In this document: one piece after another, positions 21,899 to 64,000 of the stretch
How positions within the stretch are numbered: the stretch's first letter is position 1
Layout of the letters: every line of letters begins with the position of its first letter
Source: Marinifilaceae bacterium
GTDB taxonomy: Bacteria > Bacteroidota > Bacteroidia > Bacteroidales > Marinifilaceae
DNA length: 64,000 nucleotides
Direction of reading: 5' to 3'
Assembly: GCA_041725895.1 (NCBI GenBank)
Contig: JBGRQA010000005.1
Location: forward strand, 141,134 to 205,133
Program-made: the position numbers and the translations under genes
The notes under the pieces: generated by a model
The model's database searches: none
The model's input: the letters and a program-made list of their open reading frames with translations, nothing else
What the model was told of the DNA's origin: nothing

Positions 21899-22306
21899 CT
21901 ATTCCAATTTAAATTTCATTTCCACTAAAGCACCATTCTCATTAAACTCAATCCCATCAGCAAGGTGATTCATTAAAAAAATCCCTCGCCCGTGAGTTTT
22001 CTCAATATTCTCAGGCAAAGTAGGATCCGGTATGTTCTGGAAATCGAATCCGATTCCTTCATCCTCTACAGCGAAATTGATATAATCCTCCTCTATATTG
22101 TATTCTATTCTGACCTTTTTTGAAGTATCCAATTTATTACCATGTAAAATGGCGTTATTCACTGCTTCAATTATGGCAACAGAAATTTTCCCATAAATTT
22201 CAGAACTCAGATTATGGGTTACGGAGATTTCATCTATTAGCTTTTCTACTCGGCTAATATTTTCTAACTCGGATGGAAATTCTAACAATTTTTCACAATT
22301 AGTCAT
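21899..22306 (-). CDS. RsbW-like HATPase_c-only ATP-binding protein (anti-sigma-factor-kinase fold)
   Basis: N-box EAVNNAILHGN and G-box DEGIGF. It is 135 aa with no HisKA domain. Its start overlaps the upstream gene by 8 nt. Confidence 0.7.
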   Translation of the reverse strand: MTNCEKLLEFPSELENISRVEKLIDEISVTHNLSSEIYGKISVAIIEAVNNAILHGNKLDTSKKVRIEYNIEEDYINFAVEDEGIGFDFQNIPDPTLPENIEKTHGRGIFLMNHLADGIEFNENGALVEMKFKLE

Positions 22307-47292: not shown

Positions 47293-47647
47293 AATTATTT
47301 CGTAGTTAACAATTTGTAATAATTAAGCTTAAAAATAAGGAAAATAAACTCTGAATTACTATTATTTTAGTGTTTTGCTGGATTATTACTTTTTTTTATT
47401 AAAATTAATTATCCATAACTTTAATAAATGTGTGTTTTCGTTCTGAAATTCAACAAGATCCTTCAAAAAAACACATAACAATAATCTAATTAATAAAAAT
47501 ATTTATTTCTTCAAAAACAGTCAATAGCTTTAATTATTATATTAACCATAATAAAAAACTATACTTTTACGAAAAAAAATGAACCAGAACAATCAATCTG
47601 GTCCAAAGTCCTTGCAAATTTATAGTTGCATATTATTTTTAAGTTAA

Positions 47648-49084: not shown

Positions 49085-49279
49085 TTATTTTGTAGTTGGA
49101 TCCGTTGGTTTGGTTGGTTTGGTTTCATTTTTATTCCCAATCCAACAGTCACAAGAACAATCTTGTTCATCAGCAACTGAGGTAACACCACCAAAAACAT
49201 TAACTAATTCATCTTGATTAAGTACGTCAGAGTTTTTAATAACTCTTACCGAAAAATCATTTTTCCCTTTTTTAGTCAT
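49085..49279 (-). CDS. RiPP precursor peptide B (GG leader; CSCDCWIGN core; Pro/Thr tail)
   Basis: 64 aa: MTKKGKNDFSVRVIKNSDVLNQDELVNVFGG|VTSVADEQDCSCDCWIGNKNETKPTKPTDPTTK. Paralogue of peptide A. I place the start at the internal ATG at 49279. Confidence 0.85.
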   Translation of the reverse strand: MTKKGKNDFSVRVIKNSDVLNQDELVNVFGGVTSVADEQDCSCDCWIGNKNETKPTKPTDPTTK

Positions 49280-49322: not shown

Positions 49323-49514
49323 TTACTTTGTAGTAGGATCCGTTGGTTTAGTTGGTGTGCTATTACTATTACCAATCCAACAATCACATGTACATTCTGG
49401 TTCAGCTGCATCTGAATTTAAACCACCAAAAACATTAACTAATTCGTCTTGGTTAAGCACGTCTGAGTTATTGATAACTTTTACCGAAAACTCTTTTTGA
49501 TCTTTTTTAGTCAT
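49323..49514 (-). CDS. RiPP precursor peptide A (GG leader; CTCDCWIGN core; Pro/Thr tail)
   Basis: 63 aa: MTKKDQKEFSVKVINNSDVLNQDELVNVFGG|LNSDAAEPECTCDCWIGNSNSTPTKPTDPTTK. Confidence 0.88.
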   Translation of the reverse strand: MTKKDQKEFSVKVINNSDVLNQDELVNVFGGLNSDAAEPECTCDCWIGNSNSTPTKPTDPTTK

Positions 49515-49663: not shown

Positions 49664-49867
49664 TTAATGTTCTGTAAGAATATAAGTTCGGAGACTACGA
49701 GAATAAAAAATATCATTTCCATAATCTCTTAAATAATCAATCATACGATACAAAGTACGCTCAGAGACTCCTATTTTAAATGCCAATTCCTTAGGAGTTC
49801 CGGTAGCTTTAAGAGAAGCCAATTTTTTTATTCTTTCCAATTTCTCGAAATCTTCAAAAATATTCAT
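49664..49867 (-). CDS. small helix-turn-helix protein (67 aa), first gene of the precursor operon
   Basis: GTPKELAFKIGVSERTLYRMIDYL is an HTH_11/DeoR-N-like motif. Promoter motif copy A lies 38 nt upstream. Confidence 0.7.
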   Translation of the reverse strand: MNIFEDFEKLERIKKLASLKATGTPKELAFKIGVSERTLYRMIDYLRDYGNDIFYSRSLRTYILTEH

Positions 49868-49905: not shown

Positions 49906-49936
49906 CTTTATTCCGAATTATTTAAAAAGGTAACCC
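49906..49936 (-). promoter_or_regulatory. alternative-sigma-type promoter motif, copy A
   Basis: Minus strand: GGGTTACCTTTT-TAAATAATTC-GGAATAAAG, 38 nt upstream of the HTH gene ATG. Confidence 0.65.
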
Positions 49937-50474
49937 AAATCATTTAATCTTTTTAATGATATATACATCATTAACATATTACAATGTTGCAATAATTGCT
50001 CCCACAAAATAATGGCAATTTTTTCACCCATTTATGTTAATGAAAAAAGTTCAGAACATAAGAAGCAACACTCGATATTACAATCAAGAAGTCTTAGGTG
50101 GATAAGTTTAGAAATCTCCTTTATTCGTATAACGCAACCTACTTTTCAACCGTATGGGTAAGGGAATGGTTTGTACCTACTTTCTATTAACTCCGTATCA
50201 AGTCCGTATAAATACGGAGTTAATACTACCTTGAGTAAAACAAAATATACAGCAGGTACAGACAAGATGCAGAGAAATACTAACGCACGTACAAAAACGA
50301 TGCGCCTCGCCTGAATGAGGCAATAGCACAACAGGAAAGGGAAAAAGATCAGACTAAAAAAAACTGTCAATCCGGGATTGGATTCAGCCCTCCCGCTCTA
50401 TCGAAACGGGATTAAAACCATACTTTATATTTTGAATAAGTATAGTTTTATTAGCGGAATTAGATGTTGACATG

Positions 50475-50522
50475 CAAAAAAAGACAAAGCTTTATTTATG
50501 GTACAATAAAGCTTTGTCTTTT
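50475..50522 (-). terminator. rho-independent terminator after the beta-propeller lipoprotein gene
   Basis: 17-bp perfect stem AAAGACAAAGCTTTATT / AATAAAGCTTTGTCTTT, with a T-run on the minus strand. Confidence 0.75.
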
Positions 50523-50573
50523 AATTAGAATGTAAAAAAGCGTTGAGGAAACACCCAAAGGTTACTATCCCCT

Positions 50574-51788
50574 TTAGGATTCTGATTTCAGAGTCGCCAC
50601 AACAACAATTGGATTATCTTCACTCTTCACATGGGAAACCAATTCCTTTAACTCGTCCTGCTTCTGTTGGGAAACAGCATTTCCCCATTGAAAATCCTCC
50701 TTCTGAAAGCTTTCCTTGAAAGCGGAAGCATTCCGCCAATTGCACAAATATTTGTCCTGATATATCCGCTTGGGCCAAAAGGTTTGGCCTCCATCCAAAT
50801 CATTCAAAAGGCCATAGGATCCGCTTGCTGTTTGCACAGAATAGAATTCCTTATTCACTTTATCATACAATCCGGTTATTATCTTTCCCTTGTAATCAAA
50901 ACTCATACAGGAGACAAACAACCATTTTTCACTCTCGTACACAATAGGATTCAAATATTTCCCTGCATAGTTTTGGTAACGCTTCATATCCTCTACGTAT
51001 TCTATTCGTTTCTCGACGGGGATAAATTTTTCGCCTAGCTCCAATTTATAAATCGGTTTCATTTCAGTTGGGCTGGCACAGGTAAAAATGGTATCACCAT
51101 ATAGTTTCCGGAAATGAAGCTTATTTTGATAATGATAGAAATACCGATCCGGAATCATCCAGAAAACACCGTTCCCATGAACAGTAAAACGTTCATGATT
51201 TGTAAATCCTTTGATACTATCCAATTCAACACCAAAAGAGATAGCCTTTATTTCTTTCTCTCCCTGCGGATTTCGCACATGAAGCAGAAAGGAAGTGGAA
51301 TCGATCCAATCAAAAGCCATTCCCGGCTGATCAGGAACAGGAAATTCCTCTATATAATTTCCTAAAAAATCGTACACAACCAGTTTTTGACGTCCTCCTG
51401 CACTAACGTATACCCGTTGAAGTTCCTGATTTACGGAAAGATGGTAAACTCTGGCATATTCACCAGGCCCCTTACCTATTGCTCCCACTTTACGAATAAA
51501 TTTTCCTGCCCGGTTGAATTGCATGACTGCATCGGAAGAATGGGTAAAAATAAATTGATCGGTAACAATCACATCTCGTATTCTCCCTAAATAGGAATCG
51601 TCATTCGTTTCCAGTGGAATGTATTGAATATCTTCAGCAAGAGCCGATAAATTTACACTTCGGCAATTGTCAAGATTCGCATTCAGTTCAACGTGGATGA
51701 TACCATCAACTTCCTTTTTGGAAGAGGTAGATCCACAGCTCCAAAGAAGGGTGGAAAGAAGAAAAAGAAAAACAGTTCGTAGAAGCAT
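50574..51788 (-). CDS. lipoprotein, probable 6-bladed beta-propeller family (BF3164/DUF5128-like)
   Basis: Lipobox LLWSCGS, and a beta-rich 404-aa body with repeated aromatic/Gly blades. The family assignment is from memory and weak. Confidence 0.45.
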   Translation of the reverse strand: MLLRTVFLFLLSTLLWSCGSTSSKKEVDGIIHVELNANLDNCRSVNLSALAEDIQYIPLETNDDSYLGRIRDVIVTDQFIFTHSSDAVMQFNRAGKFIRKVGAIGKGPGEYARVYHLSVNQELQRVYVSAGGRQKLVVYDFLGNYIEEFPVPDQPGMAFDWIDSTSFLLHVRNPQGEKEIKAISFGVELDSIKGFTNHERFTVHGNGVFWMIPDRYFYHYQNKLHFRKLYGDTIFTCASPTEMKPIYKLELGEKFIPVEKRIEYVEDMKRYQNYAGKYLNPIVYESEKWLFVSCMSFDYKGKIITGLYDKVNKEFYSVQTASGSYGLLNDLDGGQTFWPKRIYQDKYLCNWRNASAFKESFQKEDFQWGNAVSQQKQDELKELVSHVKSEDNPIVVVATLKSES

Positions 51789-51835
51789 GGTTAGTTAGAT
51801 TTAAAAACATAAAATATTATTCCAGAAATATAAAA

Positions 51836-51872
51836 CGAAAAAAGCAGGATCTTTCAAAGGAAAGTCCTGCTT
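51836..51872 (-). terminator. rho-independent terminator after the LytTR gene
   Basis: On the minus strand, AGCAGGA-loop-TCCTGCT is followed by TTTTTT. Confidence 0.6.
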
Positions 51873-51905
51873 TACAACAATTCATTTAATTTCACTTTTA
51901 ACAAT

Positions 51906-52268
51906 CTAATGGTGAACTCTTAGATCCAAACTCAATTTTTCCAACAATTCCTGCTTTCGCCGCCTTGCTACCGGTATGGAAGCCCCATCCTGAAGTATCA
52001 ATTGATCGGAACCAAAATTGTACTCCCGAACCTGTGAAAGGTTCACAAGAAAAGAGCGATGAATTCGGAAAAAGCCCAGAGAGTTAATCCGTTCCTCCAC
52101 CTTGGCGATGGATTGAGAAATGGTTAAACTCTCTCCATTTTTGAGGAAAATAACACTATAATTCTCCGCTGCCCGACAATATAAAATTTCATAAAGCCAA
52201 AGTAAATGCAGCCTTCGCTCCCCAGAAAAAGTGACCTTTTTGTGATAGTCAATAGTTAATTCGAGCAT
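51906..52268 (-). CDS. stand-alone LytTR DNA-binding domain protein (no receiver domain)
   Basis: 120 aa. ...ILYCRAAENYSVIFLKNGESLTISQSIAKVEERI...FFRIHRSFLVNLSQV is the LytTR signature. Confidence 0.85.
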   Translation of the reverse strand: MLELTIDYHKKVTFSGERRLHLLWLYEILYCRAAENYSVIFLKNGESLTISQSIAKVEERINSLGFFRIHRSFLVNLSQVREYNFGSDQLILQDGASIPVARRRKQELLEKLSLDLRVHH

Positions 52269-52300
52269 AAATTTCAGGTTTTATAATTTTAGTTGTACCC

Positions 52301-52331
52301 CTTTATTCCCAAAATTGAGAAAAGGTAACCC
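52301..52331 (-). promoter_or_regulatory. alternative-sigma-type promoter motif, copy B
   Basis: Minus strand: GGGTTACCTTTT-CTCAATTTTG-GGAATAAAG, 32 nt upstream of the LytTR gene ATG. Confidence 0.65.
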
Positions 52332-52671
52332 TAAATTCCATTATGTTTGACAAAAATCGAAAAAATAATGAGGAAACAGCTGGCTTTCACCTCAAAAATA
52401 TTTACACTAGAAGAATAGGCATAAGAAAAATCTCATTCTATAGGAAAGTTCTTGTGCAAAATTAGGGGAGCAAAGGAGGAACTTCAAAAATAACTTTTTC
52501 GAAATCTGAATTTAGCAACTTTGAAAAAACATTATAGCCAAACAAAAAGAAAGAAAACAAGGTAGGAACAAAGATCAACTATAGTTACTCTGAACTCATA
52601 TATAAATCAACCCAACAAAGTATCTGAATTTCTTCCTGTAAATGTAACCCACTAAAAAGAATTCAATCGGT

Positions 52672-53376
52672 TTAAAAAATACTCCCTACCTTTTTAAGAG
52701 CCTTTACATCTAAAATTCGAATCTTCCGTCCACTTAGTTCTATCATTTTATCGGATTTAAACTCGGATAGAAGACGGATCACAGATTCGGTAGCGGTCCC
52801 TACCATATTGGCCATTTCTTCGCGTGTAAGCGAAATTAAGAGGGTTTTATCATCAGACAGGCCAAATGTATCCATGAGTAGGATAAGAACTTCAGCCAAT
52901 CGCTCACGAACCGATTTCTGAGCGATATCGGTTATGTAATTGTTGGATTCGCCCAACTCCCTACAGGTAATCTGCATAAGTTCCAGAGAGAAGTTAGGAT
53001 TGGATTGAATCAAATGGGAGAGAACATTACCGGGGATAAAACAAAGAACTGCATCTTCAATAACTTTGGACGATGTACAAGCTCTTTCCTGACTTAAAAC
53101 AGATCGAAATCCAATCAAATCACCGCCCTTGGCAAAACGAATAATTTGTTCCTTTCCCTCGATTCCCGTTTTGTAAATCTTTAAAATACCCGAATAGATA
53201 AAGAAACAGCCATTTGCACGACTGCCTTCAGTATATACAACACTGCCTCTTTTAAAAAACTCACAATTGTCATCCAGAAATAGATAATTCAATTCATCAA
53301 CAGATAGATTGCGAAAAGTTTTTGAGAACTTCTCTGCACATTGATCACAATTGGGAAGACTTGCTGCCTGCTTCAT
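52672..53376 (-). CDS. Crp/Fnr family transcriptional regulator
   Basis: cNMP-binding beta-roll (FKRGSVVYTEG...FFIYSGILKIYK) plus a C-terminal HTH (TREEMANMVGTATESVIRLLSEF). Confidence 0.88.
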   Translation of the reverse strand: MKQAASLPNCDQCAEKFSKTFRNLSVDELNYLFLDDNCEFFKRGSVVYTEGSRANGCFFIYSGILKIYKTGIEGKEQIIRFAKGGDLIGFRSVLSQERACTSSKVIEDAVLCFIPGNVLSHLIQSNPNFSLELMQITCRELGESNNYITDIAQKSVRERLAEVLILLMDTFGLSDDKTLLISLTREEMANMVGTATESVIRLLSEFKSDKMIELSGRKIRILDVKALKKVGSIF

Positions 53377-53599
53377 TCGAAACTTCCAAATATTAAGGCT
53401 GTCACTCCACGAGCAACACCCTGCCAGTTAAACGTAAAATTAGACAATAAATTCACCGGCTAACCCACTAATCAATTCAAGGGAATTGATTATTTTTCTA
53501 CTTTCATAAAGGTCACCACACCTTTGTCGGTTTTAGCTCTAAATATACAAATTAAACTTAGATATTTGCAACTAGAAAACACTCTAAACATAAGAAAAA

Positions 53600-54016
53600 A
53601 TGAAGCATACTGTAAACATGACCTGGCTTGGAAATATGGCATTCGAAACGGAAATGGATGGACATAAGGTAATAACTGATGGCAGCATTGAAAATGGAGG
53701 AGATAACAAAGGTCCTCGACCTAAGGCGTTAATGTTAACAGCACTGGCGGGTTGCACGGGAATTGACATGGCTCTTATTCTAAAAAAAATGAGAGTAGAG
53801 GTACAAGATATGAACGTAAGTGTAGAAGGAGAATTAAGCGAAGAACAACCTCAATACTACACAAAAATGCATGTTATCTATGAATTTTGGGGGCAGGATT
53901 TACCAAAACATAAAATCGAAAGAGCCGTTAAGCTATCGGAAGAAGAATATTGTGGAGTAAGTGCCCTTTATAAAAAGGCCATTGAAGTAACTTCGGAAAT
54001 AGTATACCATGAATAA
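53600..54016 (+). CDS. OsmC family protein
   Basis: 138 aa. GPRPKALMLTALAGCTGID ... EEYCGVS gives the two conserved Cys regions of OsmC/Ohr. Confidence 0.85.
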   Translation: MKHTVNMTWLGNMAFETEMDGHKVITDGSIENGGDNKGPRPKALMLTALAGCTGIDMALILKKMRVEVQDMNVSVEGELSEEQPQYYTKMHVIYEFWGQDLPKHKIERAVKLSEEEYCGVSALYKKAIEVTSEIVYHE

Positions 54017-54022
54017 CAAAAA

Positions 54023-54047
54023 TGCCCCTGAATCGGCTTCAGGGGCA
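54023..54047. terminator. bidirectional terminator between the OsmC gene and pheS
   Basis: Stem TGCCCCTGAA-tcggc-TTCAGGGGCA, flanked by A-runs and T-runs. Confidence 0.7.
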
Positions 54048-54070
54048 CTTTAAATATTTTGTATAGTAAT

Positions 54071-55093
54071 TTAAAATCCTGCGGCAGTAAATTGCTCCAG
54101 GAAGCGGATATCATTCTCAAAGAATAAGCGTAGATCTTTGATTCCATACTTCAACATGGTAATCCGCTCAACACCCATCCCCAGTGCAAAACCAGTGTAT
54201 TTCTTGCTGTCGATACCGTTCAGTTCCATAACATTTGGATCAACCATACCACAACCCAGAATTTCCAACCATCCGGTTCCCTTACAAACATTACATCCTT
54301 TTCCTCCACACAACGAACAGGTTACATCCACCTCTGCCGATGGCTCAGTAAATGGGAAATAGGAAGGACGCAAGCGAATTTCGGTTTTCTCACCAAAGAA
54401 CTCCTTAGCAAAATAGGTAAGTGTTTGCTTTAAGTCCGCAAAAGAAACATTCTCATCAATATACAGACACTCAATTTGATGGAAAATACAGTGCGCACGG
54501 GCTGAAATGGCTTCGTTACGAAATACTCGACCAGGAGTCAGGCAACGAATAGGTAGCTCCATTTCCTCCATATCATGAGCCTGCACCGAAGAAGTATGGG
54601 TACGAAGCAGAATATCTGGATTTTTCTCGATAAAAAAAGTATCCTGCATATCACGAGCCGGATGCTCTTCGGGGAAGTTCAACGCAGAGAAATTGTGCCA
54701 ATCATCTTCAATTTCTGGTCCTTCGGAGATCGTAAAGCCTAAACGAGTAAAAATATCGATGATTTCATTCTTTACTAGAGAAAGAGGATGACGAGAACCC
54801 AATTTTACAGGATCACCAGGCAGGGTAAGATCCATTCCGGATTTGCCAACCTCACCGGTGCAAAAACTCTCTTTCAACTCATTCACCTTATCCATAGCTG
54901 CAGTTTTAAGCACATTCAATGCTTGTCCTACGGCTTTTTTCTGTTCGTTGGGTACAGTTTTAAAATCAGTGAACAATGCTGCAATGGTTCCCTTTTTACT
55001 AAGGTGCTTTATTCTGAATTGTTCTACCTCTTCAAGTGTGGTAGCTGAAAATCCGTTCAGCTCCTCCTGTAATTCTTTTATCTTATCTAACAT
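54071..55093 (-). CDS. pheS: phenylalanine--tRNA ligase alpha subunit
   Basis: 340 aa with class II aaRS motifs (HPARDMQDTF, FRNE, GFALGMGVERI). Confidence 0.96.
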   Translation of the reverse strand: MLDKIKELQEELNGFSATTLEEVEQFRIKHLSKKGTIAALFTDFKTVPNEQKKAVGQALNVLKTAAMDKVNELKESFCTGEVGKSGMDLTLPGDPVKLGSRHPLSLVKNEIIDIFTRLGFTISEGPEIEDDWHNFSALNFPEEHPARDMQDTFFIEKNPDILLRTHTSSVQAHDMEEMELPIRCLTPGRVFRNEAISARAHCIFHQIECLYIDENVSFADLKQTLTYFAKEFFGEKTEIRLRPSYFPFTEPSAEVDVTCSLCGGKGCNVCKGTGWLEILGCGMVDPNVMELNGIDSKKYTGFALGMGVERITMLKYGIKDLRLFFENDIRFLEQFTAAGF

Positions 55094-55204
55094 TTTTTAC
55101 ACGTTTAGTAATCTCGTTTGGCTTGCAAAGTTACGAAAAAGTTTTTTTTGAGATTATCTGTTTCACTTTTAATCCTTTCAAACCATTAAGGGGTGAAAGC
55201 GATA

Positions 55205-56035
55205 TCAGTACTTTAAAATCTTAACCTTAATGGTCACATCCTTATAGGGGCGATCGTTTGGGTCTGTTTTCAAGGCTGCAATACGGTCAATTACATCAAA
55301 TCCTTTCACCACCTCCCCAAAAACAGTATAATTCCCATCCAAATGGGGCACTCCACCTACAGTAGTATAGGCTTTCCTTTGTTCCGGGCTAAATATCAGT
55401 CTCCCAGGATCACTGTTGTAATCAAAATTGATGGAGGATTTTATACTATTCGCTAATTTTCTGAATTCTTCAACACTCTTCTCCTTTTTCAGAGAATCGA
55501 GAATTGCTCTTTTCCGGGGAGTTAAATAGCGCTTCACAATCTTTTTTCGTAGAGGCACATTCACCTCTTTTTCCATAAGATTTAATTCCTTTTCGGAATA
55601 TACTCTACCATGAGCGATATAGAATTGGGAAACATCCGATTCCTTGAAAATATTCACTTTATCGGGTTGGCGGGGGGCTGCCAAGGCCCCTTTCTTATGG
55701 AAATATTGTGGCTTGAATTCCGATTCAATGGTCCGGTTTGCTGCTCCATAGCCAATCAGAGCCCCCGGGGCGGCATTCCTTGAATCCTGTGATCCTCCCT
55801 GGAGCACAAAACCTTTTATTACCCTGTAAAAAAGGGTCCCGTCAAAATGCTTGTTCTCTATTAACTGCAAGAAATTCTTACGGTGTTTCGGGGTATCTTT
55901 GTAAAGCACCAATTCAATATTCCCAAAATTACTTTGAATTTGAACAAGAGTTCTATCATCTTTCTGAGCCGAACAAACTGCAAGCATGCAAAATAGGAAG
56001 ACGAATAAAAAACTAACTGCTTTTCTCTTCACCAT
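55205..56035 (-). CDS. cyclophilin-type peptidyl-prolyl cis-trans isomerase (secreted)
   Basis: FYRVIKGFVLQGG and YTVFGEVV motifs. I place the start at ATG 56035 (MVKRKAVSFLFVFLFCMLAVCSAQ), which gives a normal signal peptide. Confidence 0.85.
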   Translation of the reverse strand: MVKRKAVSFLFVFLFCMLAVCSAQKDDRTLVQIQSNFGNIELVLYKDTPKHRKNFLQLIENKHFDGTLFYRVIKGFVLQGGSQDSRNAAPGALIGYGAANRTIESEFKPQYFHKKGALAAPRQPDKVNIFKESDVSQFYIAHGRVYSEKELNLMEKEVNVPLRKKIVKRYLTPRKRAILDSLKKEKSVEEFRKLANSIKSSINFDYNSDPGRLIFSPEQRKAYTTVGGVPHLDGNYTVFGEVVKGFDVIDRIAALKTDPNDRPYKDVTIKVKILKY

Positions 56036-56204
56036 GACTGTAATTAATTTAGATAAAAGAGATTGAACCAATGTGTACAATCTCAAATTTCACCCGAATA
56101 TAAAAATGCACAATGGGCTTTCCAAATAATCCTCTCTTCCTTCCCTAAAAGAATGGCTCCGAGAGAGATTTTCCCGAAGCCAAACTTGAATGAATTCAAC
56201 TATC

Positions 56205-57032
56205 TTATTGCAAAACTTTAATTGTCATTTCGATATCCTTTAAAGGTCTGTCAAAAGGATCTTTCTCTACGGCAGCAATTTTATCGATTATTTCGAGTCC
56301 TTCTATAACTTCTCCGAAAACAGTGTAATTTCCATCCAAATGGGGAATCCCACCTATTGTGGTATAAGCTTTTCGTTGCGCTTCGGTCAATATTAGTTTT
56401 TCATCATTCATCAGAGAATCCACCATCTGTGGCATTTTCCCCTGGAAATCAGCAATTTTCAACATCTCTCCCTCCTCTTGCCATTTCATCAACTGGGTGC
56501 TGTATTTATTTCGCAAACGGTCAAAAATGGCAGCTCTTCTTCGGTTGTTGATTTTTACGACCAATGAATCCAATTCTCCGGAACGATACACTTTCCCTTG
56601 GGCAATATAGAATTGGGAACCGGCTGATTTCTTTTGGGGATTCACATTATCCCCTTCCCGGGCCGCAGCAATAACTCCTCTTTTATGAAATAGTTCCTTT
56701 TTGAATTCAGCAGGCAATTGATAACCTGGGCCGCCTTCCCCTAAACGGGCACCCGGTTCTGCTGTTTTCGAATCCGGATCTCCCCCCTGAATCATAAATC
56801 CATTGATTACCCGGTGAAACAGAGTTCCATTAAAAAACTCAGCCTTAGTGAGTTTCACAAAATTATCACGATGAACAGGTGTTTCGTCGTAAAGTCGAAT
56901 TTTCATATCTCCAAATTCAGTGGATACCTGAATTATCCTGTTGGTTTGATCAGTCTTAGACGCAGGTTTGTTGTTGGATTTACAAGATGTAATTAACAAC
57001 ACAAAAAGCAGTAAGTAAATGTAGTTTTTCAT
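56205..57032 (-). CDS. cyclophilin-type peptidyl-prolyl cis-trans isomerase (lipoprotein)
   Basis: Lipobox LLITSC. FHRVINGFMIQGGDP and YTVFGEVIEG motifs. Paralogue of the neighbouring PPIase. Confidence 0.88.
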   Translation of the reverse strand: MKNYIYLLLFVLLITSCKSNNKPASKTDQTNRIIQVSTEFGDMKIRLYDETPVHRDNFVKLTKAEFFNGTLFHRVINGFMIQGGDPDSKTAEPGARLGEGGPGYQLPAEFKKELFHKRGVIAAAREGDNVNPQKKSAGSQFYIAQGKVYRSGELDSLVVKINNRRRAAIFDRLRNKYSTQLMKWQEEGEMLKIADFQGKMPQMVDSLMNDEKLILTEAQRKAYTTIGGIPHLDGNYTVFGEVIEGLEIIDKIAAVEKDPFDRPLKDIEMTIKVLQ

Positions 57033-57051
57033 AGTATTATTTTATTTATTC

Positions 57052-57405
57052 TTAATCTTCAACCAGATATCCATTCTCCTTAAAATACTCAACAATGGAT
57101 GATTTTAACAACTGTTGCGCTTTATCTTTAGAAAATGAGGGCAAAAGTTTATTTCTCTCAAAAACCGGCCAATTATCTTCATCGACTCCAGTTTGGGTAT
57201 AGTAATTCCACCGCATAAACAATTTACAGGTGGCCAAATCAATTAAATCTGTTTTCTCTTGCTTGGTATATGATTTTTCAAATCCTTTTCCTCGCTCCTG
57301 AATACCGATGAGTAGCAACATTCCATTCAAATCGGCATCCACATCAAACTCTACAGATACTTTATAGAGCAATTTATTCCAATCTCTCTCCAAATTACTT
57401 TCCAT
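57052..57405 (-). CDS. hypothetical cytoplasmic protein (117 aa)
   Basis: Clean ORF with normal codon usage, in an operon-like position upstream of the PPIase genes. I recognise no motif. Confidence 0.5.
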   Translation of the reverse strand: MESNLERDWNKLLYKVSVEFDVDADLNGMLLLIGIQERGKGFEKSYTKQEKTDLIDLATCKLFMRWNYYTQTGVDEDNWPVFERNKLLPSFSKDKAQQLLKSSIVEYFKENGYLVED

Positions 57406-57495
57406 AGCTAATTTTTTTTTGAACCTTAAAATTACAGATTATTCGATATTTAGGGTGCTTCAGCGATTTTTTTTTTCAGTTTTTTAATTTTTTAA

Positions 57496-57527
57496 TTTGC
57501 GTATAAAGAAATTCCCACTTATATTTG
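57496..57527 (+). promoter_or_regulatory. Bacteroidota housekeeping-type promoter (TTTG-N20-TATATTTG) for the tRNA pair
   Basis: Matches the published Bacteroides consensus of -33 TTTG and -7 TAnnTTTG. It ends 20 nt before the first tRNA. Confidence 0.55.
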
Positions 57528-57546
57528 CATCGCTTTTAAGAGGAAA

Positions 57547-57624
57547 GGGCGGTTAGCTCAGTTGGTTCAGAGCACTTGGTTTACACCCAAGGGGTCATAG
57601 GTTCGAATCCTATACCGCCCACCA
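57547..57624 (+). tRNA. tRNA-Val (anticodon TAC), CCA encoded
   Basis: Acceptor stem GGGCGGT/ACCGCCC, anticodon stem CTTGG/CCAAG with loop TT-TAC-AC, T-arm GGTTCGAATCC, then A-CCA. Confidence 0.9.
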
Positions 57625-57649
57625 GATTGAAATAAAATCCTCCCATTTC

Positions 57650-57724
57650 GGGCGATTAGCTCAGTTGGTTCAGAGCACTTGGTTTACACCCAAGGGGTCA
57701 TAGGTTCGAATCCTATATCGCCCA
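57650..57724 (+). tRNA. tRNA-Val (anticodon TAC), second tandem copy, no encoded CCA
   Basis: The body is identical to copy 1 except for a compensated acceptor-stem pair (GGGCGAT/ATCGCCC). It is followed by CAC rather than CCA. Confidence 0.9.
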
Positions 57725-57727
57725 CAC

Positions 57728-57761
57728 AAGCATGATACTAAAAGTATCATGCTTTTTTTTT
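57728..57761 (+). terminator. rho-independent terminator after the tRNA pair
   Basis: Stem AAGCATGATACT-aaa-AGTATCATGCTT followed by T9. Confidence 0.85.
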
Positions 57762-58039
57762 ATCATTCAATTCGGGAATAACCACCTCCGCCCGAAATTC
57801 TAAACTATAAACCAATCTTCTTATTTTTGATTCTATTTTTAGACTGTCTTTGACAAGATAATATTGAATCGAACAAATCTCAAAGATTAATACTATATTG
57901 TGACTGTTTATGTTAATGAAAGCAAACTACTCATGTATAAAAGCATATTATTGATAAAAAATAAGCTTTTAATAATCATCATTAAATAAGATGGTTATCA
58001 TTCCACAATCGCGTTTTTTTATATTTTTTTTCAAGTTAA

Positions 58040-58070
58040 GGGTTACCTTTTAGTCAAAAGGAGAATAAAG
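58040..58070 (+). promoter_or_regulatory. alternative-sigma-type promoter motif, copy C (in front of the sigma gene itself)
   Basis: GGGTTACCTTTT-AGTCAAAAGG-AGAATAAAG, ending only 10 nt before the sigma gene ATG. Confidence 0.65.
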
Positions 58071-58080
58071 GGGTAGAAAT

Positions 58081-58641
58081 ATGGATTACACTACCGAAGC
58101 AATACTCGAGGGTATCAGTAGAAGCAATAACGATGTATTAAAATACGTATACAGCAAGTTTTACCCAAGTATTAGAAACTTTATAGAAAATAATAATGGA
58201 AATGAAGAGGACGCACGTGATCTTTTTCAAGAGGCCATTATTGTAATCTATCGTAAAATGAAAAAAGAACCTCTGGTTCTCAATTGTAACTTTAAAACCT
58301 ATATCTATTCGGTTTGTAAGTTACTATGGCTAAAACAACTGGAGAAACGAAGACAAAACAATGAGGTCTCCGACGATTCCCTATTGGATAACCGTTTGGA
58401 CGAAGTAACCCAAAACTGGGAGGAAACGGAACGATACAGGTTGTATCAGAAACACTTCCTTCGACTGGGAGACGATTGCCAAAAAGTTCTTCGACTCTCC
58501 CTAGAGAAAGTCTCCCTGAAGAAAATAGCCGAAATTATGGGCTACAAAGGGGAAAAATATGCGAAAAAAAGAAAATTTCAGTGTAAACAACAACTTGTGG
58601 AAAGTATAAAAAATGATAACCAATATAATGAAGTACAATGA
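58081..58641 (+). CDS. sigma-70 family (ECF-like) RNA polymerase sigma factor
   Basis: 186 aa. Region-2-like DARDLFQEAIIVIYRKM...YIYSVCKLLWL, and region-4 HTH CQKVLRLSLEKVSLKKIAEIMGY. Confidence 0.8.
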   Translation: MDYTTEAILEGISRSNNDVLKYVYSKFYPSIRNFIENNNGNEEDARDLFQEAIIVIYRKMKKEPLVLNCNFKTYIYSVCKLLWLKQLEKRRQNNEVSDDSLLDNRLDEVTQNWEETERYRLYQKHFLRLGDDCQKVLRLSLEKVSLKKIAEIMGYKGEKYAKKRKFQCKQQLVESIKNDNQYNEVQ

Positions 58642-59390
58642 TGAATGAAAAGTTAAATTTTGAACGAATCGAGGAATTTCTGGATGGGGACTTAACCGGA
58701 GATGAATTGATGGAATTCGAACAGGATCTACTCGACGATTCCGACCTACAAATGGAGTTAGACCTTCATGAAGAAATCAATATGGCAATCATGGAGGATG
58801 ACGTTATGGACCTACGGGCGAAACTGGAAGCCATAGAACCTCCTGCAAGTGATAAGAAGAGACGATTATCACTATTCCTAGGAAAATGGCAATTGGCTGC
58901 AGCATCGTTAATCCTAATGATTGGTATTAGTAGCTTGTTCTACCTGTTGGGAGACCGCACCTATACCAATGAGGAAATCTACAGCAGTTACTACAAACCG
59001 TACAATGTTGTTATCAACACCCGTTCTGCTGAAGGAAGTACCAATGACATACTGGTAAATGCCTTGCAAAGTTACGAAGCAAAAGACTACCGGACTGCAT
59101 TGAGCTTATTCAAAGATGTTCTTGACAAAGACAGCTTGAATGTTACCGGAAACTTCTATTCAGGAGTTTCAAACATCGAAATTAAAGAGTATGATGCCGC
59201 GAATGTAAACTTTACTCGTGTAATCAAACATAAAAACAATTTATTCCTGGAGCAATCAGAATGGAATTTAGCCTTCTGTTACCTCATGACAGAAGAAAAA
59301 GAAAAAGCAATTAAGCAATTTCAATACATAGCAGCAAGCAACAGCTACTACAAGTCCAAAGCCCAGGAGATTTTAAATAAGCTGGAATAG
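58638..59390 (+). CDS. anti-sigma-factor-like single-pass membrane protein with extracytoplasmic TPR-like domain
   Basis: ATGA overlap with the sigma stop codon. It has an acidic N-terminal helix region (IEEFLDGDLTGDELMEFEQDL), a TM segment (WQLAAASLILMIGISSLFYLL) and a C-terminal TPR-like domain. Confidence 0.6.
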   Translation: MMNEKLNFERIEEFLDGDLTGDELMEFEQDLLDDSDLQMELDLHEEINMAIMEDDVMDLRAKLEAIEPPASDKKRRLSLFLGKWQLAAASLILMIGISSLFYLLGDRTYTNEEIYSSYYKPYNVVINTRSAEGSTNDILVNALQSYEAKDYRTALSLFKDVLDKDSLNVTGNFYSGVSNIEIKEYDAANVNFTRVIKHKNNLFLEQSEWNLAFCYLMTEEKEKAIKQFQYIAASNSYYKSKAQEILNKLE

Positions 59391-59418
59391 ATTACTTTTC
59401 ATTCATCGTCAAATATAG

Positions 59419-59454
59419 AAAGCCGTTTGATCACAATCGAACGGCTTTTTCTTT
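59419..59454 (+). terminator. rho-independent terminator after the sigma/anti-sigma pair
   Basis: Stem AAAGCCGTT-loop-AACGGCTTT followed by a T-run. Confidence 0.65.
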
Positions 59455-59852
59455 GCTTACACCTTACATAAAATTAAACCACATGCCACACGAAACTGTA
59501 GTGCTATTCATCCCTTAATAAATCGAATTATAGATACTTGTATTATTAAACAATCAGTTCATCAACTGACAGTCTCGAAATGTCCGAACACAAAATAGAA
59601 GAATGTCTTCCGGCAATTTGTCAACCTCCCCGTCTAGCAAAATAGAACCGTAATCCTTTATATCATTGTGATTCAAATACTATTTTGTGAAGTCGAAAGA
59701 TATGGATTATTGCTCTGCAAAAATGGAAAGTGATTCGATCCTAAACCAAACATGAAATGGCATACTTACCATATCCTTTTGTTAATGTATTTTTTATTCA
59801 GTTAAATATTCTATAGCTTTCATATTGAACTGGCATTTACAAGTATTGCAAT

Positions 59853-62717
59853 CTATCTATTCAATTTCCTTCTCCGGAAGAGGTAGTAAATTGGAAAGCA
59901 AAAAAGTAGTAGTAAAGCCAAATATTTCCCTTTGGAAACTACTCCTCCATCATACATAACCGAAGTATCGCCCAAAGTAACATAGCCCGACCAAAAATAG
60001 GGATGAGCTTTTAAAGGATCCGCATTTTTAAGGTATTCCATTTTTGCTGCCCTCAAAGCGGCGTCTTTGGACATACCTTCCCCCAGAAATTGATAGAAAT
60101 AGGTCATTAAACTGGATCCGGATTTATCCTCTACAGTCCACAATGTCATCACAATACTGGGACAACCTGCATAGAAAAAACCACGTGCCAAACTCATCAC
60201 CCCTTCCCCTTTCAACAATTTTCCATCGCCGGTATTGCATGCACTCAAAACAACCATTCGCGCATTAAAATTCATATTATAAATCTCATGCGTATTCAAC
60301 AAGCCATCCTCGCCAGCAGACTTATTTTGTGTAAACACCAACTTCGAGAACATGGGATTCTCATCATCGATAATGGTATGCATGGCCAAATGCAAAACGT
60401 CGTAGTTGATTGCATTCTTCTTAAAATTTTCCTCTGTAGCCAATTCATCCACATACAAATCGCCTTCAATTACTTTCGAAATATTCTTAACCTCCTCTTT
60501 TACACCAGGCAAAGGAAATAGCTTATCCCGATAAGCAGCTCTCTCCACATACAGTATAGAGTCACTCACATCGTTATAACTGGGAGCGAAAGCCAACAAT
60601 ACTTTTGAGGATTCGTGCTCTTTCTGGGTATTTTTAAAACCAAGAGTTGCCGAATTTTGATAAGTAATGGTATGATCCTTCAGTAAGTAATCAAGATTCC
60701 TGTAATTGATCTTACTTGAATCCCCATTCTGTTTTAACAGTACACCAAAGGGCAAATAGGCCAACTTATCATCGGGAACTATGACCAATTTTTTCTGATG
60801 AATCATAGAATCAAAAGAAAATAGTAATTGTTGGTAGAGCTGATGTGCCGAATGGATATAGGTTTTATAGTATTCAAAACTATTTTGTGAAAAATCGTTG
60901 GTTTTTAGACACTTCCGAACAGATTCAATGTTCTTATCCAACTCAGATTTATTAATGGATTGGCGCTGAATCTGAAAATCATTGGAAGAAATGATGAAAG
61001 AGAAGAGCGCCGAATCGGAAATGGAATACTCCACAAATACCTCTCCCTCCCCCAAATGTTCCTGAAGTTCCTTAACATCAATGGTTCGGGCATCATATTT
61101 CAAAGCAAAGTAATCAGGATACTCCAGCTCGAAGGTTTTCACCATCTCCTCGTACTGAACATTCAGGTTGAAGAGCTCATTCTGCCATTCAGCTATTTTT
61201 TTCCGGCTGGGCTTCAGCTTCTTTCTTTCCTCATAAACAGCAGCCCTGTATTTGGCAATCCCCTTCCTTACCTCCTGTTCCTGTTTCTGCAGTTCGGCAG
61301 GAATTCCCCCAAATTCTTTGGCGTTTACATCTCGCAGAGAGGCCATTAAACTGGCTGACTTGGAGCGCTCAGCATAGTAGAAGGCTTTCTCCTTATAGAT
61401 ATACTCCCCGGTCTCCTTGTATAGCTGAAGCGCTAATTCAATCGATTTGGTATAGGTTTCCTTCTCGTTTTCAGAAAGTATTAACCGGCTCTCCTCGTCC
61501 TGGTAGGCGATTCGAATTCGGTCAATAGTAACCAGGCACAGATCAAAAGTTTCCAATGCTATCTTCAGATCCTTAATCTCCCTGGTATCCTTAGCATACA
61601 ATTCATAGAAGGCGTAGGCTTTCCCCTTTAAACAGGAAAGAATCGAAATCTGAGGATCAATCTGTTCCTGAATTGGATTGTGATAAATATTATTATCGGA
61701 ATAATTCTCCAACTCCGAATTCAGGGATTTTTGGAAATAATCAAGCGCCTTTCTTCTTTTTCCCATCTTTAAGTAAAAGGTCCCGTAATTGTTTAAGCAT
61801 TGGGCAATATAGGGATTTGATCCTCCCATATTTTTTGAATAAACCTGGTAAGCTTTTCCAAGATTAAGGAGAGCCTCCTCATTTCTCTCATGAGCAAAGA
61901 GGAATACAGCGAAATTCATGTACAAATTCCCTAGGAGATAAGAATCTATAGAGTTATTCCGAATAGTCTCTTCAATACTCAGTTTGTGATAATAGATAGC
62001 TTTCTCAAAATCTTTCAGATGGTTGTAGCAATTGGCCATATTGGTATAGTTACTACTCAAATCCTTTACCCTGAATTTTTTCTTCAGATCCAAACTTTCG
62101 GAATAGTAACTCAAGGCTTTACCCCATTGCTTCTTGTTCTTACAAATAATCCCCAAATTATTATACAATAAGGCCAACCAGCGTAAATTCTTCTTAGAAT
62201 CCTTTTTTAAATTAAACAAAGCCTCGTTGTAGAACTTCTCCGCTTTCAAAATATCTCCCCTGAAAGTATAGATATTCCCCTGATTCAAGTTTATCAACCC
62301 CAATTTGTTAAAATCATTTTTGAAATGAAGCTGTACCAAATTCTCCGTCCTCTGATAGAATTGAAGCGCCTCCTCCATTTTCCCTAATTTTTTTTTGAGT
62401 ACTCCAAAATTCATATAAATCCGGTAGGCCAAGTTGGGATCAAAGTCAGAGCTTTGTTCTAACAACTCAACTGTTTTCTGAAAGGATTCCTCTGCATTTA
62501 TAAAATCACCATTTCTCAAAGCTCCAACGGATTGATCATATAAAGCTTTCAATGAAGTATCCTGCTGAAGAATCGATTTCTCATGAGTAGGAAAATGGGG
62601 GGCTGACCCCACTGCATAGCCATCCCTGCCCATCAAAAAACAGAAGAGGAGCAGTAGAAATAAAAAAATCGTACTTTTTTTTCTTACAAGGGTGTCAAAA
62701 GCTAAGAACCTGAACAC
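59853..62717 (-). CDS. TPR-repeat CHAT-domain protein (caspase-like protease fold) with signal peptide and C-terminal TM anchor
   Basis: About 450 aa of TPR units, then a CHAT domain with a His/Cys dyad context (VLHLAMHT ... VVLSACNTGDG), then a terminal TM (YLALLLLFCFPIYYLF). It apparently uses a GTG start, so the start is uncertain. Confidence 0.8.
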   Translation of the reverse strand: MFRFLAFDTLVRKKSTIFLFLLLLFCFLMGRDGYAVGSAPHFPTHEKSILQQDTSLKALYDQSVGALRNGDFINAEESFQKTVELLEQSSDFDPNLAYRIYMNFGVLKKKLGKMEEALQFYQRTENLVQLHFKNDFNKLGLINLNQGNIYTFRGDILKAEKFYNEALFNLKKDSKKNLRWLALLYNNLGIICKNKKQWGKALSYYSESLDLKKKFRVKDLSSNYTNMANCYNHLKDFEKAIYYHKLSIEETIRNNSIDSYLLGNLYMNFAVFLFAHERNEEALLNLGKAYQVYSKNMGGSNPYIAQCLNNYGTFYLKMGKRRKALDYFQKSLNSELENYSDNNIYHNPIQEQIDPQISILSCLKGKAYAFYELYAKDTREIKDLKIALETFDLCLVTIDRIRIAYQDEESRLILSENEKETYTKSIELALQLYKETGEYIYKEKAFYYAERSKSASLMASLRDVNAKEFGGIPAELQKQEQEVRKGIAKYRAAVYEERKKLKPSRKKIAEWQNELFNLNVQYEEMVKTFELEYPDYFALKYDARTIDVKELQEHLGEGEVFVEYSISDSALFSFIISSNDFQIQRQSINKSELDKNIESVRKCLKTNDFSQNSFEYYKTYIHSAHQLYQQLLFSFDSMIHQKKLVIVPDDKLAYLPFGVLLKQNGDSSKINYRNLDYLLKDHTITYQNSATLGFKNTQKEHESSKVLLAFAPSYNDVSDSILYVERAAYRDKLFPLPGVKEEVKNISKVIEGDLYVDELATEENFKKNAINYDVLHLAMHTIIDDENPMFSKLVFTQNKSAGEDGLLNTHEIYNMNFNARMVVLSACNTGDGKLLKGEGVMSLARGFFYAGCPSIVMTLWTVEDKSGSSLMTYFYQFLGEGMSKDAALRAAKMEYLKNADPLKAHPYFWSGYVTLGDTSVMYDGGVVSKGKYLALLLLFCFPIYYLFRRRKLNR

Positions 62718-62802
62718 AAGATTTTTGCTGGGTTTTGTTAGTATTAGGAAATCTAAATATAGAGGAAAAATTTTACTTTTTTGAAAAAAACTTAGTTTTC
62801 GA

Positions 62803-62833
62803 GGGTTACCTTTTCGTGATTTTCGGAATAAAG
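62803..62833 (+). promoter_or_regulatory. alternative-sigma-type promoter motif, copy D
   Basis: GGGTTACCTTTT-CGTGATTTTC-GGAATAAAG, 42 nt upstream of small peptide gene 1. Confidence 0.65.
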
Positions 62834-62875
62834 GGATGTATTTAATTTTTAATAAACATCATTAATCCCTATACC

Positions 62876-62983
62876 ATGAAAAATTTCGAAACCCTAAACC
62901 AAGAAGAGCTGCAGGAAGTTAAAGGCGGATACAATCCTTACGAAATGAGAGAAATCGATGTCACCGATGACGCTATTGTTTAA
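62876..62983 (+). CDS. 35-aa double-glycine-leader peptide 1 (acidic 17-aa core)
   Basis: MKNFETLNQEELQEVKGG|YNPYEMREIDVTDDAIV. It is absent from the ORF track because it is under 60 aa. Support comes from the paralogue comparison. Confidence 0.75.
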   Translation: MKNFETLNQEELQEVKGGYNPYEMREIDVTDDAIV

Positions 62984-63017
62984 TCACTATATTAATTGAT
63001 CAAAATTTCCCTATACC

Positions 63018-63125
63018 ATGAAAAATTTTGAAACCCTAAACCAAGAAGAGCTACTGGAAGTAAAAGGTGGATACAATCCTTATGAAATGAGAGAAATCGA
63101 TGTTACTGATGATGCTATCGTATAA
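63018..63125 (+). CDS. 35-aa double-glycine-leader peptide 2 (identical core)
   Basis: MKNFETLNQEELLEVKGG|YNPYEMREIDVTDDAIV. Against copy 1 it has 10 synonymous and 1 non-synonymous difference (leader Q13L). Confidence 0.75.
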   Translation: MKNFETLNQEELLEVKGGYNPYEMREIDVTDDAIV

Positions 63126-63167
63126 AAAACTCTCAGAACTAATTTAATTAAAAAATATTTGTTTTCA

Positions 63168-63198
63168 GGGTTACCTTTTGATGGAAAACGGAATTAAG
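63168..63198 (+). promoter_or_regulatory. alternative-sigma-type promoter motif, copy E
   Basis: GGGTTACCTTTT-GATGGAAAAC-GGAATTAAG, 31 nt upstream of the histidine kinase ATG. Confidence 0.6.
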
Positions 63199-63229: not shown

Positions 63230-64000
63230 ATGGAGAAACGTCCAACATATAAGGAATTGGAAAGGCAACTGAAAGATGCTTTGCACAGGGCCCAGGAAGC
63301 CGAAGAGCTGAAAAATGCTTTTTTGGCCAACATGTCCCACGAGATACGCACGCCAATGAATGCGATTATCGGAGCGTCGGAATTGTTGCGAGACCAAAAC
63401 CTTACGGTGGCCGAACGAAATGAGTTTGCCAATATTCTCTCTACGAGCAGCCGTGAATTGTTGGAATTGTTTAACCGAATTATAGAATTGTCTGAGATGG
63501 AATCCGGACAATGCAAATTGAACGAAGCCGAATTGGATCTACAGATTCTTTTTCTGAAACTGTATTCTAAATACGAGGTCAGGATTAAGGAGGAGAAAAA
63601 GAACATAACATTATCCTACACACAGCAAATACCGGATATCTCCTTTTTCACCGATTCGGATAAACTGAACAAGGTATTAAGCCACCTTTTAGATAATGCC
63701 GTCAAGTATACAACCAATGGCAATATCGAATTTGGATGCAACCTACAGGATCATAATAATCTTTTATTCTACGTAAAAGACACAGGTCCGGGAATTAGCA
63801 TCAAAGAACAAGAAAATATTTTCCAGAAATTCCGGCAAATTGATAATTCCTATACCAGGGAATATTCCGGGGCTGGTTTGGGCTTAAGTTTAAGTAAAGA
63901 AACCGTAAAAATATTAGGCGGACGATTATATATTGACTCAATACCCGGCGAGGGTTCCATTTTTTACTTTACCCTGCCGTTGAAATATTCGGAAACGAAC
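63230..64000 (+). CDS. histidine kinase with no N-terminal sensor or TM domain (3' end outside the window)
   Basis: My own translation from ATG 63230 is open to the window end. It shows a coiled-coil N-terminus, H-box FLANMSHEIRTPMN, N-box LLDNAVKYT, G1 DTGPGI and G2 GAGLGLS. The ORF track lists only antisense ORFs here. Confidence 0.85.
   Translation, partial: MEKRPTYKELERQLKDALHRAQEAEELKNAFLANMSHEIRTPMNAIIGASELLRDQNLTVAERNEFANILSTSSRELLELFNRIIELSEMESGQCKLNEAELDLQILFLKLYSKYEVRIKEEKKNITLSYTQQIPDISFFTDSDKLNKVLSHLLDNAVKYTTNGNIEFGCNLQDHNNLLFYVKDTGPGISIKEQENIFQKFRQIDNSYTREYSGAGLGLSLSKETVKILGGRLYIDSIPGEGSIFYFTLPLKYSETN

Follow-up and report, generated by a model that had tools for sequence, protein, structure and literature searches.

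A bipartite motif at five gene starts in Marinifilaceae DNA as the probable promoter read by a divergent ECF-type sigma factor encoded beside it

The stretch of DNA analysed here (64 kb, referred to as the window) belongs to a Marinifilaceae metagenome-assembled genome (MAG) and contains five copies of the bipartite motif GGGTTACCTTTT-N10-RGAATWAAG. These five motifs are very probably promoters recognised by RNA polymerase carrying an extracytoplasmic function (ECF)-type sigma factor encoded in the same region, at 58081-58641. The five copies (P1 to P5) and the sigma gene are listed here with their strands; scores in bits are those of the weight matrix described below.

P1, 49906-49936 (-), 38 nucleotides from the ATG of a helix-turn-helix (HTH) gene heading an operon for ribosomally synthesised and post-translationally modified peptides (RiPPs); 35.1 bits
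P2, 52301-52331 (-), 32 nucleotides from the ATG of a stand-alone LytTR gene; 34.5 bits
P3, 58040-58070 (+), 10 nucleotides from the sigma start codon; 33.9 bits
P4, 62803-62833 (+), 42 nucleotides from the ATG of tandem double-glycine (GG)-leader peptide genes; 33.3 bits
P5, 63168-63198 (+), 31 nucleotides from the ATG of a kinase gene; 34.2 bits
Sigma factor, 58081-58641 (+), 186 amino acids, divergent, ECF-type, sigma-2 and sigma-4 regions only (Sigma70_r2, TIGR02937)

The full pattern has five matches in the window and no further one even at three mismatches, while shuffled sequences give 0.02. The exact 12-mer GGGTTACCTTTT also occurs five times, and the remaining near-matches in the window all carry two mismatches and are about as numerous as chance predicts. 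All five copies are intergenic, and each is oriented toward a same-strand ATG 10-42 nucleotides on. The coordinates and gene-start distances given in an earlier, sequence-only reading of this DNA agree with the exact search and with the open reading frame (ORF) coordinates. That reading had also called the 31-nucleotide copies identical. This holds for the 12-mer, to which identity among the copies is restricted; they vary in the 10-nucleotide spacer and at two 9-mer positions. Similarity between copies ends at about 34-40 nucleotides and the flanks are unrelated, so the motif is not part of a longer repeat.

The sigma protein scores 25.9 bits with Sigma70_r2 and 61.3 bits with TIGR02937 (cut-off 42.9), and falls below all NCBIfam subfamily cut-offs. 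Its length falls in the range of about 170-220 amino acids expected of ECF factors. The profile of its family aligns end to end (residues 5-156) with the SigW, SigH, and SigE structures at E-values of 1e-4 to 3e-2. At E ≤1e-30 the family profile recovers 776 clusters (50% identity). A profile search found no second ECF-like sigma factor in the window. In an alignment of the family (A1), every sequence has cysteines at window-protein positions 133 and 168, and nearly every one has them at 69 and 79. Such invariant cysteines are unusual for ECF factors and hint at metal or redox sensitivity.

The motif accompanies the sigma gene in other organisms. A protein-similarity scan of metagenome contigs yielded 80 loci with sigma homologues at 43-78% identity, 77 of them usable. 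Directly upstream of the sigma start codon, 56 of the 77 carry the pattern GGT[T/A]AC[C/T]TTT-N12-G[A/G/T]AT. In Labilibaculum antarcticum (sigma 79% identical) and Marinifilum caeruleilacunae (77%), the motif ends 10-11 nucleotides before the sigma ATG and is found again ahead of tandem GG peptides. One locus with a 57%-identical sigma has the variant GGTTACTTTTT...GGAATTAAC ahead of the sigma gene, a protein with a type IX secretion system (T9SS) tail, and a kinase. Homologues in Chitinophagaceae (about 30% identity) are divergent from a motif-driven lipoprotein gene, the motif lying in the shared intergenic region, and a weaker GGGTTAC-N16-GTATTAAT is located upstream of the sigma gene itself.

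A weight matrix was derived from 52 unique sites, each lying ahead of a sigma homologue in another organism. Applied to the window, it returns exactly the five sites at 33-35 bits, and everything else scores below 12 bits. Applied to 1.56 Mb of related loci, it returns 235 non-redundant sites. ORFs of 120 amino acids or more contain 3.4% of these sites, compared with 80% of random positions. For 133 out of 191 sites, an ORF starts within the next 60 nucleotides; in the reverse direction this is true of 28. The spacing of the half-sites was counted in loci selected by protein rather than by pattern: the -35-like half-site occurs 114 times there, followed by GAAT at exactly 16 nucleotides from GGTTAC in 75 cases and at any other spacing (10-23 nucleotides) in just four.

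A strict pattern was also scanned over 185,579 species genomes and gave at least 118 matching stretches, with about 17 chance matches estimated for the entire collection. Among the 118 matches listed, 116 are from Bacteroidota (Marinifilaceae, Prolixibacteraceae, Odoribacter, Chitinophagaceae, Mucilaginibacter). The other two are from a MAG labelled Chlorobiota and from Lactobacillus, the latter probably a chance match. Several genomes have matches on different scaffolds, with Marinifilum breve, for example, represented on three among the matches listed. The candidate regulon thus extends beyond a single locus and is not purely local, as it had been described earlier.

The anatomy of the sites suggests a core promoter. 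The extended logo consists of an A/T-rich tract, the 12-nucleotide GGGTTACCTTTT, a variable spacer, GGAAT(A/T)AA, and a T[G/A] located 8-9 nucleotides after GAAT that is conserved in all target classes. Both the A/T-rich upstream tract and the T[G/A] after the -10 element fit a promoter, and the rigid spacing of the half-sites fits the geometry of an ECF promoter. In the proposed arrangement, GGGTTACCTTTT would be an extended -35 element, (G)GAAT(A/T)AA, exactly 16 nucleotides after GGTTAC, would be the -10 element, and transcription would start at the conserved T[G/A]. The sequence-only reading took AAT(A/T)AA as the -10 element with a 17-nucleotide spacer from GGTTAC; the arithmetic is correct, and an ECF-style (G)GAAT is equally possible from the sequence. 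For the sigma gene, the start is predicted at about A58075/G58076, leaving a 5' untranslated region of about 5-6 nucleotides. The nearly leaderless sigma transcript proposed earlier fits the position of the T[G/A].

In dozens of loci the motif ends about 10-12 nucleotides from the sigma start codon and must therefore hold the core promoter itself. With no room left for a separate core promoter before the start codon, the motif cannot be read as an upstream activator site, and a sigma-A promoter assisted by an activator was rejected on this ground. The Bacteroidota sigma-A boxes TTTG (at -33) and TAnnTTTG (at -7) are likewise absent at all five sites, including the interval between motif and start codon. 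A sigma-A promoter of this type (TTTG ... TATATTTG) is found at about 57497-57528, ahead of two tRNA-Val genes. The motif is thus unlike the housekeeping consensus, as had been stated. A scan of the window for the E. coli-type sigma-70 consensus gave 69 matches against 58.6 expected and is uninformative here. The two tRNA-Val(TAC) genes (57547-57624 and 57650-57725) are in tandem, are 97% identical, and are followed by a strong terminator hairpin (57728-57754).

Autoregulation of the sigma gene, proposed from the single site in the window, is borne out by the motif at 56 of 77 homologues, at least as far as conservation can indicate it. The earlier view of purely positive feedback needs amending. 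P3 would also cover the gene for an anti-sigma-like protein directly downstream, so the feedback is expected to be both positive and negative. We hold with high confidence that RNA polymerase with this sigma factor would initiate at the motif sites, and with equally high confidence that P3 would yield the sigma factor and its antagonist together.

The sites in related DNA can be sorted by the gene downstream. Distances to the ATG were measured from the 30-nucleotide modelled site.

Sigma genes, 60 sites, median about 12 nucleotides to the ATG
GG-leader peptide genes, 48 sites, 43-58 nucleotides to the ATG
Kinases and receiver proteins (one blastp cluster), 8 sites
HTH_11 genes, 7 sites
Small lipoproteins (Chitinophagaceae), 6 sites
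LytTR genes, 5 sites
A 73-amino-acid Cys-containing protein, 4 sites
C25 gingipain-like peptidases, 4 sites
T9SS-tail proteins, 3 sites
HlyD, LemA, and HU-like genes, single cases

The motif-driven C25 peptidases and Por-tail proteins link the regulon to T9SS-secreted proteins. The gingipain-like peptidases are about 980 amino acids long, and they and the Por-secretion-tail proteins were seen in loci L014, L028, L029, and L108, and L003, L134, and L135. The 73-amino-acid protein (loci L008, L035, L048, and L061) has conserved cysteines (e.g., MENSYTNFYGLIFTCPLENEVQSC...) and belongs to no Pfam family. Locus L013 (Marinifilum breve scaffold_8) has three HTH_11 paralogues about 2.3-2.5 kb apart, two of them with a detected motif, an arrangement suggestive of several consecutive peptide clusters under sigma control.

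Three other explanations of the five copies were weighed. The first is that the motif is an alternative-sigma promoter read by another sigma factor encoded elsewhere, the adjacent sigma gene being just a target. Bacteroidota encode an average of 22.5 ECF sigma factors per genome (PMC7826278), and 21 of the 77 homologues have a motif-free sigma gene with neighbouring genes that retain the motif. Against this stand the co-occurrence of the motif and this sigma family from Marinifilaceae to Chitinophagaceae, the near-invariance of the -35 element, matched by that of the family's sigma-4 helix, and the single sigma factor recovered from the window by profile search. We regard this explanation as very improbable.

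The second is that the motif is an operator of the LytTR or the 67-amino-acid HTH protein of the cluster, acting on a separate core promoter. Both of these genes have an upstream motif, which resembles autoregulation, and double-glycine peptide loci in Firmicutes are classically under LytTR control. However, the motif consists of two unrelated half-sequences, whereas LytTR sites are typically direct repeats. LytTR homologues were found in 6 and HTH homologues in 4 of about 200 motif- or sigma-bearing loci (many cut by contig ends), against 113 with the sigma factor. No downstream core promoter fits at the 60 sigma genes where the modelled site ends so close to the start codon, and the motifs are unaccompanied by a sigma-A-type box. 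An operator is accordingly very improbable.

The third takes the copies to be a dispersed repeat, the remnant of a mobile element, a non-promoter RNA element, or chance. Some spacers can pair (CCTTTT...AAAAGG in P3) and so hint at a hairpin. This explanation is effectively refuted by the 0.02 copies expected, the early end of similarity between unrelated flanks, spacers that vary and often cannot pair, the absence of any Rfam family overlapping the five copies, and a strongly non-random position and orientation relative to start codons. A hairpin or RNA element was rejected for the inconsistent spacer pairing and the missing Rfam match, and a miniature inverted-repeat transposable element or other repeat was rejected because similarity ends at about 40 nucleotides. 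A dispersed repeat with no relation to gene starts, named earlier as a refuting outcome, is likewise not borne out in the related DNA scanned.

Several observations weigh against assigning the motif to this sigma factor and its operon. The -35 element reads TTAC and not the usual ECF AAC, and the -10 element is without the usual CGT, so the half-sites are assigned by geometry only. The 21 homologues without a motif at the sigma gene form one clade with rearranged gene order. When sigma residues were compared with the motif variants (GGTAAC/GGTTAC; GAAT/GTAT or GGAT), the top columns merely followed clades. A phmmer search of the PDB with the sigma protein, which is very divergent, returned no solved relative. 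The anti-sigma assignment of the downstream protein is made from context and a sub-threshold zf-HC2 match. Another sigma factor or regulator of the same specificity may be encoded elsewhere in the source genome, of which the window was the part scanned.

In the rearranged clade, the motif drives a cassette of a GG peptide and an anti-sigma-like protein, and the motif-free sigma gene adjoins a CHAT gene. Three loci of the Odoribacter / Prolixibacteraceae type (L047, L058, and L175) have cassettes of this kind, composed of motif, GG peptide, and an anti-sigma-like protein of about 500 amino acids, in tandem duplicates.

The genes adjoining the sigma gene in the window are as follows.

58638-59390 (+): anti-sigma-like protein, 250 amino acids, with acidic N-terminal helices, one transmembrane segment, and a C-terminal tetratricopeptide repeat (TPR) domain
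59417-59450 (+): terminator-like hairpin closing the sigma / anti-sigma operon (hairpin prediction)
59853-62717 (-): TPR-CHAT protein, ORF of 954 amino acids with an uncertain start codon (CHAT PF12770, E 6.7e-59)

The start codon of the anti-sigma-like gene overlaps the sigma stop codon, and the gene adjoins sigma in most loci. The top Pfam match of its N-terminus is zf-HC2, at 21.6 bits at best against a threshold of 22.2, and its N-terminal profile returned only noise when compared with solved structures. The TPR-CHAT protein has a signal-like N-terminal segment and a C-terminal membrane anchor; its annotated product differs from the 954-amino-acid ORF. Among 62 homologues, conservation of the His/Cys dyad of the CHAT domain (HLAMH, VLSAC) and of the C-terminal anchor is at least 97%, and the dyad does not vary at all in alignment A3. 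The CHAT-domain profile found no real match among solved CHAT structures, and the full protein matches TPR proteins only.

The motif does not drive CHAT in any of 33 CHAT upstream regions, and the CHAT gene of the window is also without it. In 19 of the 33, the motif is directed away from CHAT and toward peptides. Two loci (L092 and L118) have two tandem TPR-CHAT genes adjoining one peptide promoter. Among the approximately 200 loci, the anti-sigma-like gene was found in 88 and CHAT in 91. By gene content, the sigma factor, the membrane TPR anti-sigma-like protein, the separate and putatively periplasmic TPR-CHAT protease, and the motif-driven GG peptides constitute a conserved module.

The 250-amino-acid protein would hold sigma inactive at the membrane until a periplasmic signal frees it. 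The adjacent TPR-CHAT protease, its dyad intact by sequence, may take part in the release. Such sequestration, with release involving a constitutively expressed periplasmic TPR-CHAT protein and feedback of the GG peptides on release, is proposed with low to moderate confidence.

The peptide, regulator, and export genes of the window are listed here.

62876-62983 (+): GG-leader peptide 1, 35 amino acids, MKNFETLNQEELQEVKGG / YNPYEMREIDVTDDAIV (NCBIfam bacteriocin-type leader)
63018-63125 (+): GG-leader peptide 2, 35 amino acids, a DNA repeat 91% identical to peptide 1
63230-64000 (+): histidine kinase (HisKA/HATPase), soluble, lacking both a membrane and a sensor domain, and running off the window end
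51906-52268 (-): LytTR protein, 120 amino acids, without a receiver domain (LytTR E 3.4e-21); motif-driven homologues elsewhere
50574-51788 (-): DUF5128 six-bladed beta-propeller lipoprotein (Pfam)
49664-49867 (-): HTH_11 protein, 67 amino acids (Pfam); motif-driven homologues in related DNA
49323-49514 (-): RiPP precursor 1, 63 amino acids, GG leader and CxCxCW core (weak TIGR04149)
49085-49279 (-): RiPP precursor 2, 64 amino acids, GG leader and CxCxCW core
47648-48982 (-): radical S-adenosylmethionine (SAM)/SPASM peptide maturase (Pfam and NCBIfam)
47580-47605 (-): terminator-like hairpin between the maturase and exporter genes
45085-47292 (-): peptidase-C39 ATP-binding cassette (ABC) exporter of the peptidase-containing ABC transporter (PCAT) type (Pfam)
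43679-44980 (-): HlyD-family membrane-fusion protein (Pfam)

P4 would drive the two GG-leader peptides, P5 the sensorless kinase, P2 the stand-alone LytTR regulator, and P1 the HTH protein followed by the radical-SAM RiPP operon. The DUF5128 gene is possibly co-transcribed with the LytTR gene. Kinase homologues of 287-311 amino acids (HisKA, HATPase_c) adjoin the module in related loci.

The predicted mature part of the window GG peptide is YNPYEMREIDVTDDAIV, and that of L. antarcticum (AP018042.1, locus L001) is YNEMTDTCTLDDCIV. In motif-driven peptides the mature part is clade-specific, with a median length of 13 amino acids and a median net charge of -2. Being short and acidic, these peptides resemble signalling peptides more closely than they do the usual cationic bacteriocins. 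The two RiPP precursors are 82% identical DNA repeats with Thr/Pro/Lys-rich tails. Their maturase falls below every NCBIfam equivalog cut-off, which leaves the product class of the RiPP undefined.

The C39 exporter is, by its domains, the expected processing and export machine for the GG-leader peptides. It is separated from the maturase by the hairpin and a 355-nucleotide gap. Because the exporter lies behind a terminator-like hairpin, its co-activation is less certain and would need read-through or another promoter. The sequence-only reading had the sigma factor co-activating peptides, export, and further regulators; the motif sites speak for the peptides and the regulators, while export is less certain on account of the hairpin at 47605-47580.

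The remainder of the window consists of ordinary chromosomal genes. One ORF of 1097 amino acids among the housekeeping genes (22299-25592, -) has no Pfam family at E ≤1e-5.

The unit can be compared with four known systems. ECF group IV (E. coli RpoE-RseA, B. subtilis SigW-RsiW) likewise has sigma-2 and sigma-4 only, a self-promoter ahead of an operon of sigma and anti-sigma (here anti-sigma-like) genes, a bipartite rigidly spaced promoter with an extended -35 element, and a compact regulon. The sigma factor here differs in being very divergent, as its NCBIfam and PDB results indicate. Its -35 GGTTACCTTT and -10 GAAT take the place of AAC / CGT, its mRNA is predicted to be almost leaderless, and the anti-sigma domain is below the recognition threshold.

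DdvS-DdvA of Myxococcus xanthus is an ECF sigma factor with a transmembrane anti-sigma factor that has a periplasmic TPR-CHAT domain (PMC11506125). DdvA is the only characterised TPR-CHAT anti-sigma factor, its active site is described as incomplete, and its relatives are found just in Myxococcota and one Comamonas (PMC11506125). As is predicted here, an ECF sigma factor, a single-pass anti-sigma factor, and a periplasmic TPR-CHAT module are encoded together, and the proposed logic, in which CHAT clips the periplasmic part before intramembrane proteolysis, would be shared. Unlike DdvA, the TPR anti-sigma-like and TPR-CHAT proteins here are separate genes on opposite strands, so that no single polypeptide joins a cytoplasmic zinc anti-sigma domain, a transmembrane helix, and a periplasmic TPR-CHAT domain as in DdvA. 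The His/Cys dyad is intact and conserved, and the regulon comprises peptides, regulators, RiPPs, and proteases rather than the CBASS (cyclic-oligonucleotide-based antiphage signalling) and CRISPR (clustered regularly interspaced short palindromic repeats) systems of the DdvS regulon. DdvS-DdvA is the closest mechanistic precedent.

In the type III-E CRISPR craspase, the TPR-CHAT protein Csx29 is encoded with Csx30 and an RpoE-type sigma factor (PMC10028731). The genetic link between a TPR-CHAT protease and an ECF-type sigma factor is thus shared. Csx29 reportedly cleaves Csx30, which is said to bind the sigma factor. The craspase is cytoplasmic and RNA-guided, whereas the predicted topology here is extracytoplasmic and the locus has no CRISPR genes.

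Double-glycine pheromone circuits of Firmicutes (ComC-ComAB-ComDE-ComX, BlpC-BlpRH) turn on either an alternative sigma factor or bacteriocins. They likewise combine tandem short GG-leader peptides, a C39-ABC exporter, a LytTR protein and a histidine kinase, an alternative sigma factor, RiPP/bacteriocin genes, and an autoinduction-like promoter layout. Com/Blp/Agr promoters have two direct repeats of about 9-10 bp that are about 12 bp apart, and these circuits use a REC-LytTR regulator with a membrane kinase. By comparison, the promoter here is of the sigma type without LytTR direct repeats, the host is a diderm Bacteroidota member, the kinase is without a membrane sensor, the LytTR protein is without a receiver domain, and peptide sensing is putative.

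No description of this sigma factor, motif, or module was found in the searchable literature, which did not extend to ECF-classification supplements that possibly list the promoter of the group. The main text of the ECF classification describes no such group (PMC7826278).

More tentatively, the sigma factor, the TPR anti-sigma-like protein, TPR-CHAT, and the GG peptides may form a peptide-autoinducing, quorum-sensing-like switch widespread in Bacteroidota, a possibility that we hold to be doubtful. In such a switch, the C39-ABC exporter would cut and export the short acidic peptides, and a TPR domain would sense them outside the cytoplasm. Sensing would set off CHAT-dependent removal of the anti-sigma protein, and the freed sigma factor would raise peptide output and turn on RiPPs, regulators, and secreted proteases. 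Three features hint at it. The peptide cores are short, net acidic, and clade-specific, the peptide promoter is divergent beside the CHAT gene in most loci, none driving CHAT, and one clade has motif-driven cassettes of peptide plus anti-sigma, some of them tandemly duplicated.

The promoter-sigma pair would be an autoregulated ECF sigma/anti-sigma unit, familiar in kind. What appears to set the locus apart, judging by gene content, is the conserved link to a split TPR-CHAT / anti-sigma pair and to pheromone-like GG peptides. A probable promoter and a candidate regulon are now available for a large and unstudied sigma family. In related genomes, this sigma factor is linked through the regulon with RiPP clusters, with C25 proteases of the gingipain-like type, and with cargo of the T9SS. 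The sigma/promoter pair could find use in activating silent peptide gene clusters or as an orthogonal expression part for Bacteroidota. If the link to CHAT and the peptides is true, the module would be a split counterpart of DdvA and a candidate for peptide signalling in Bacteroidota, a phylum where the literature searched yielded no description of such a route.

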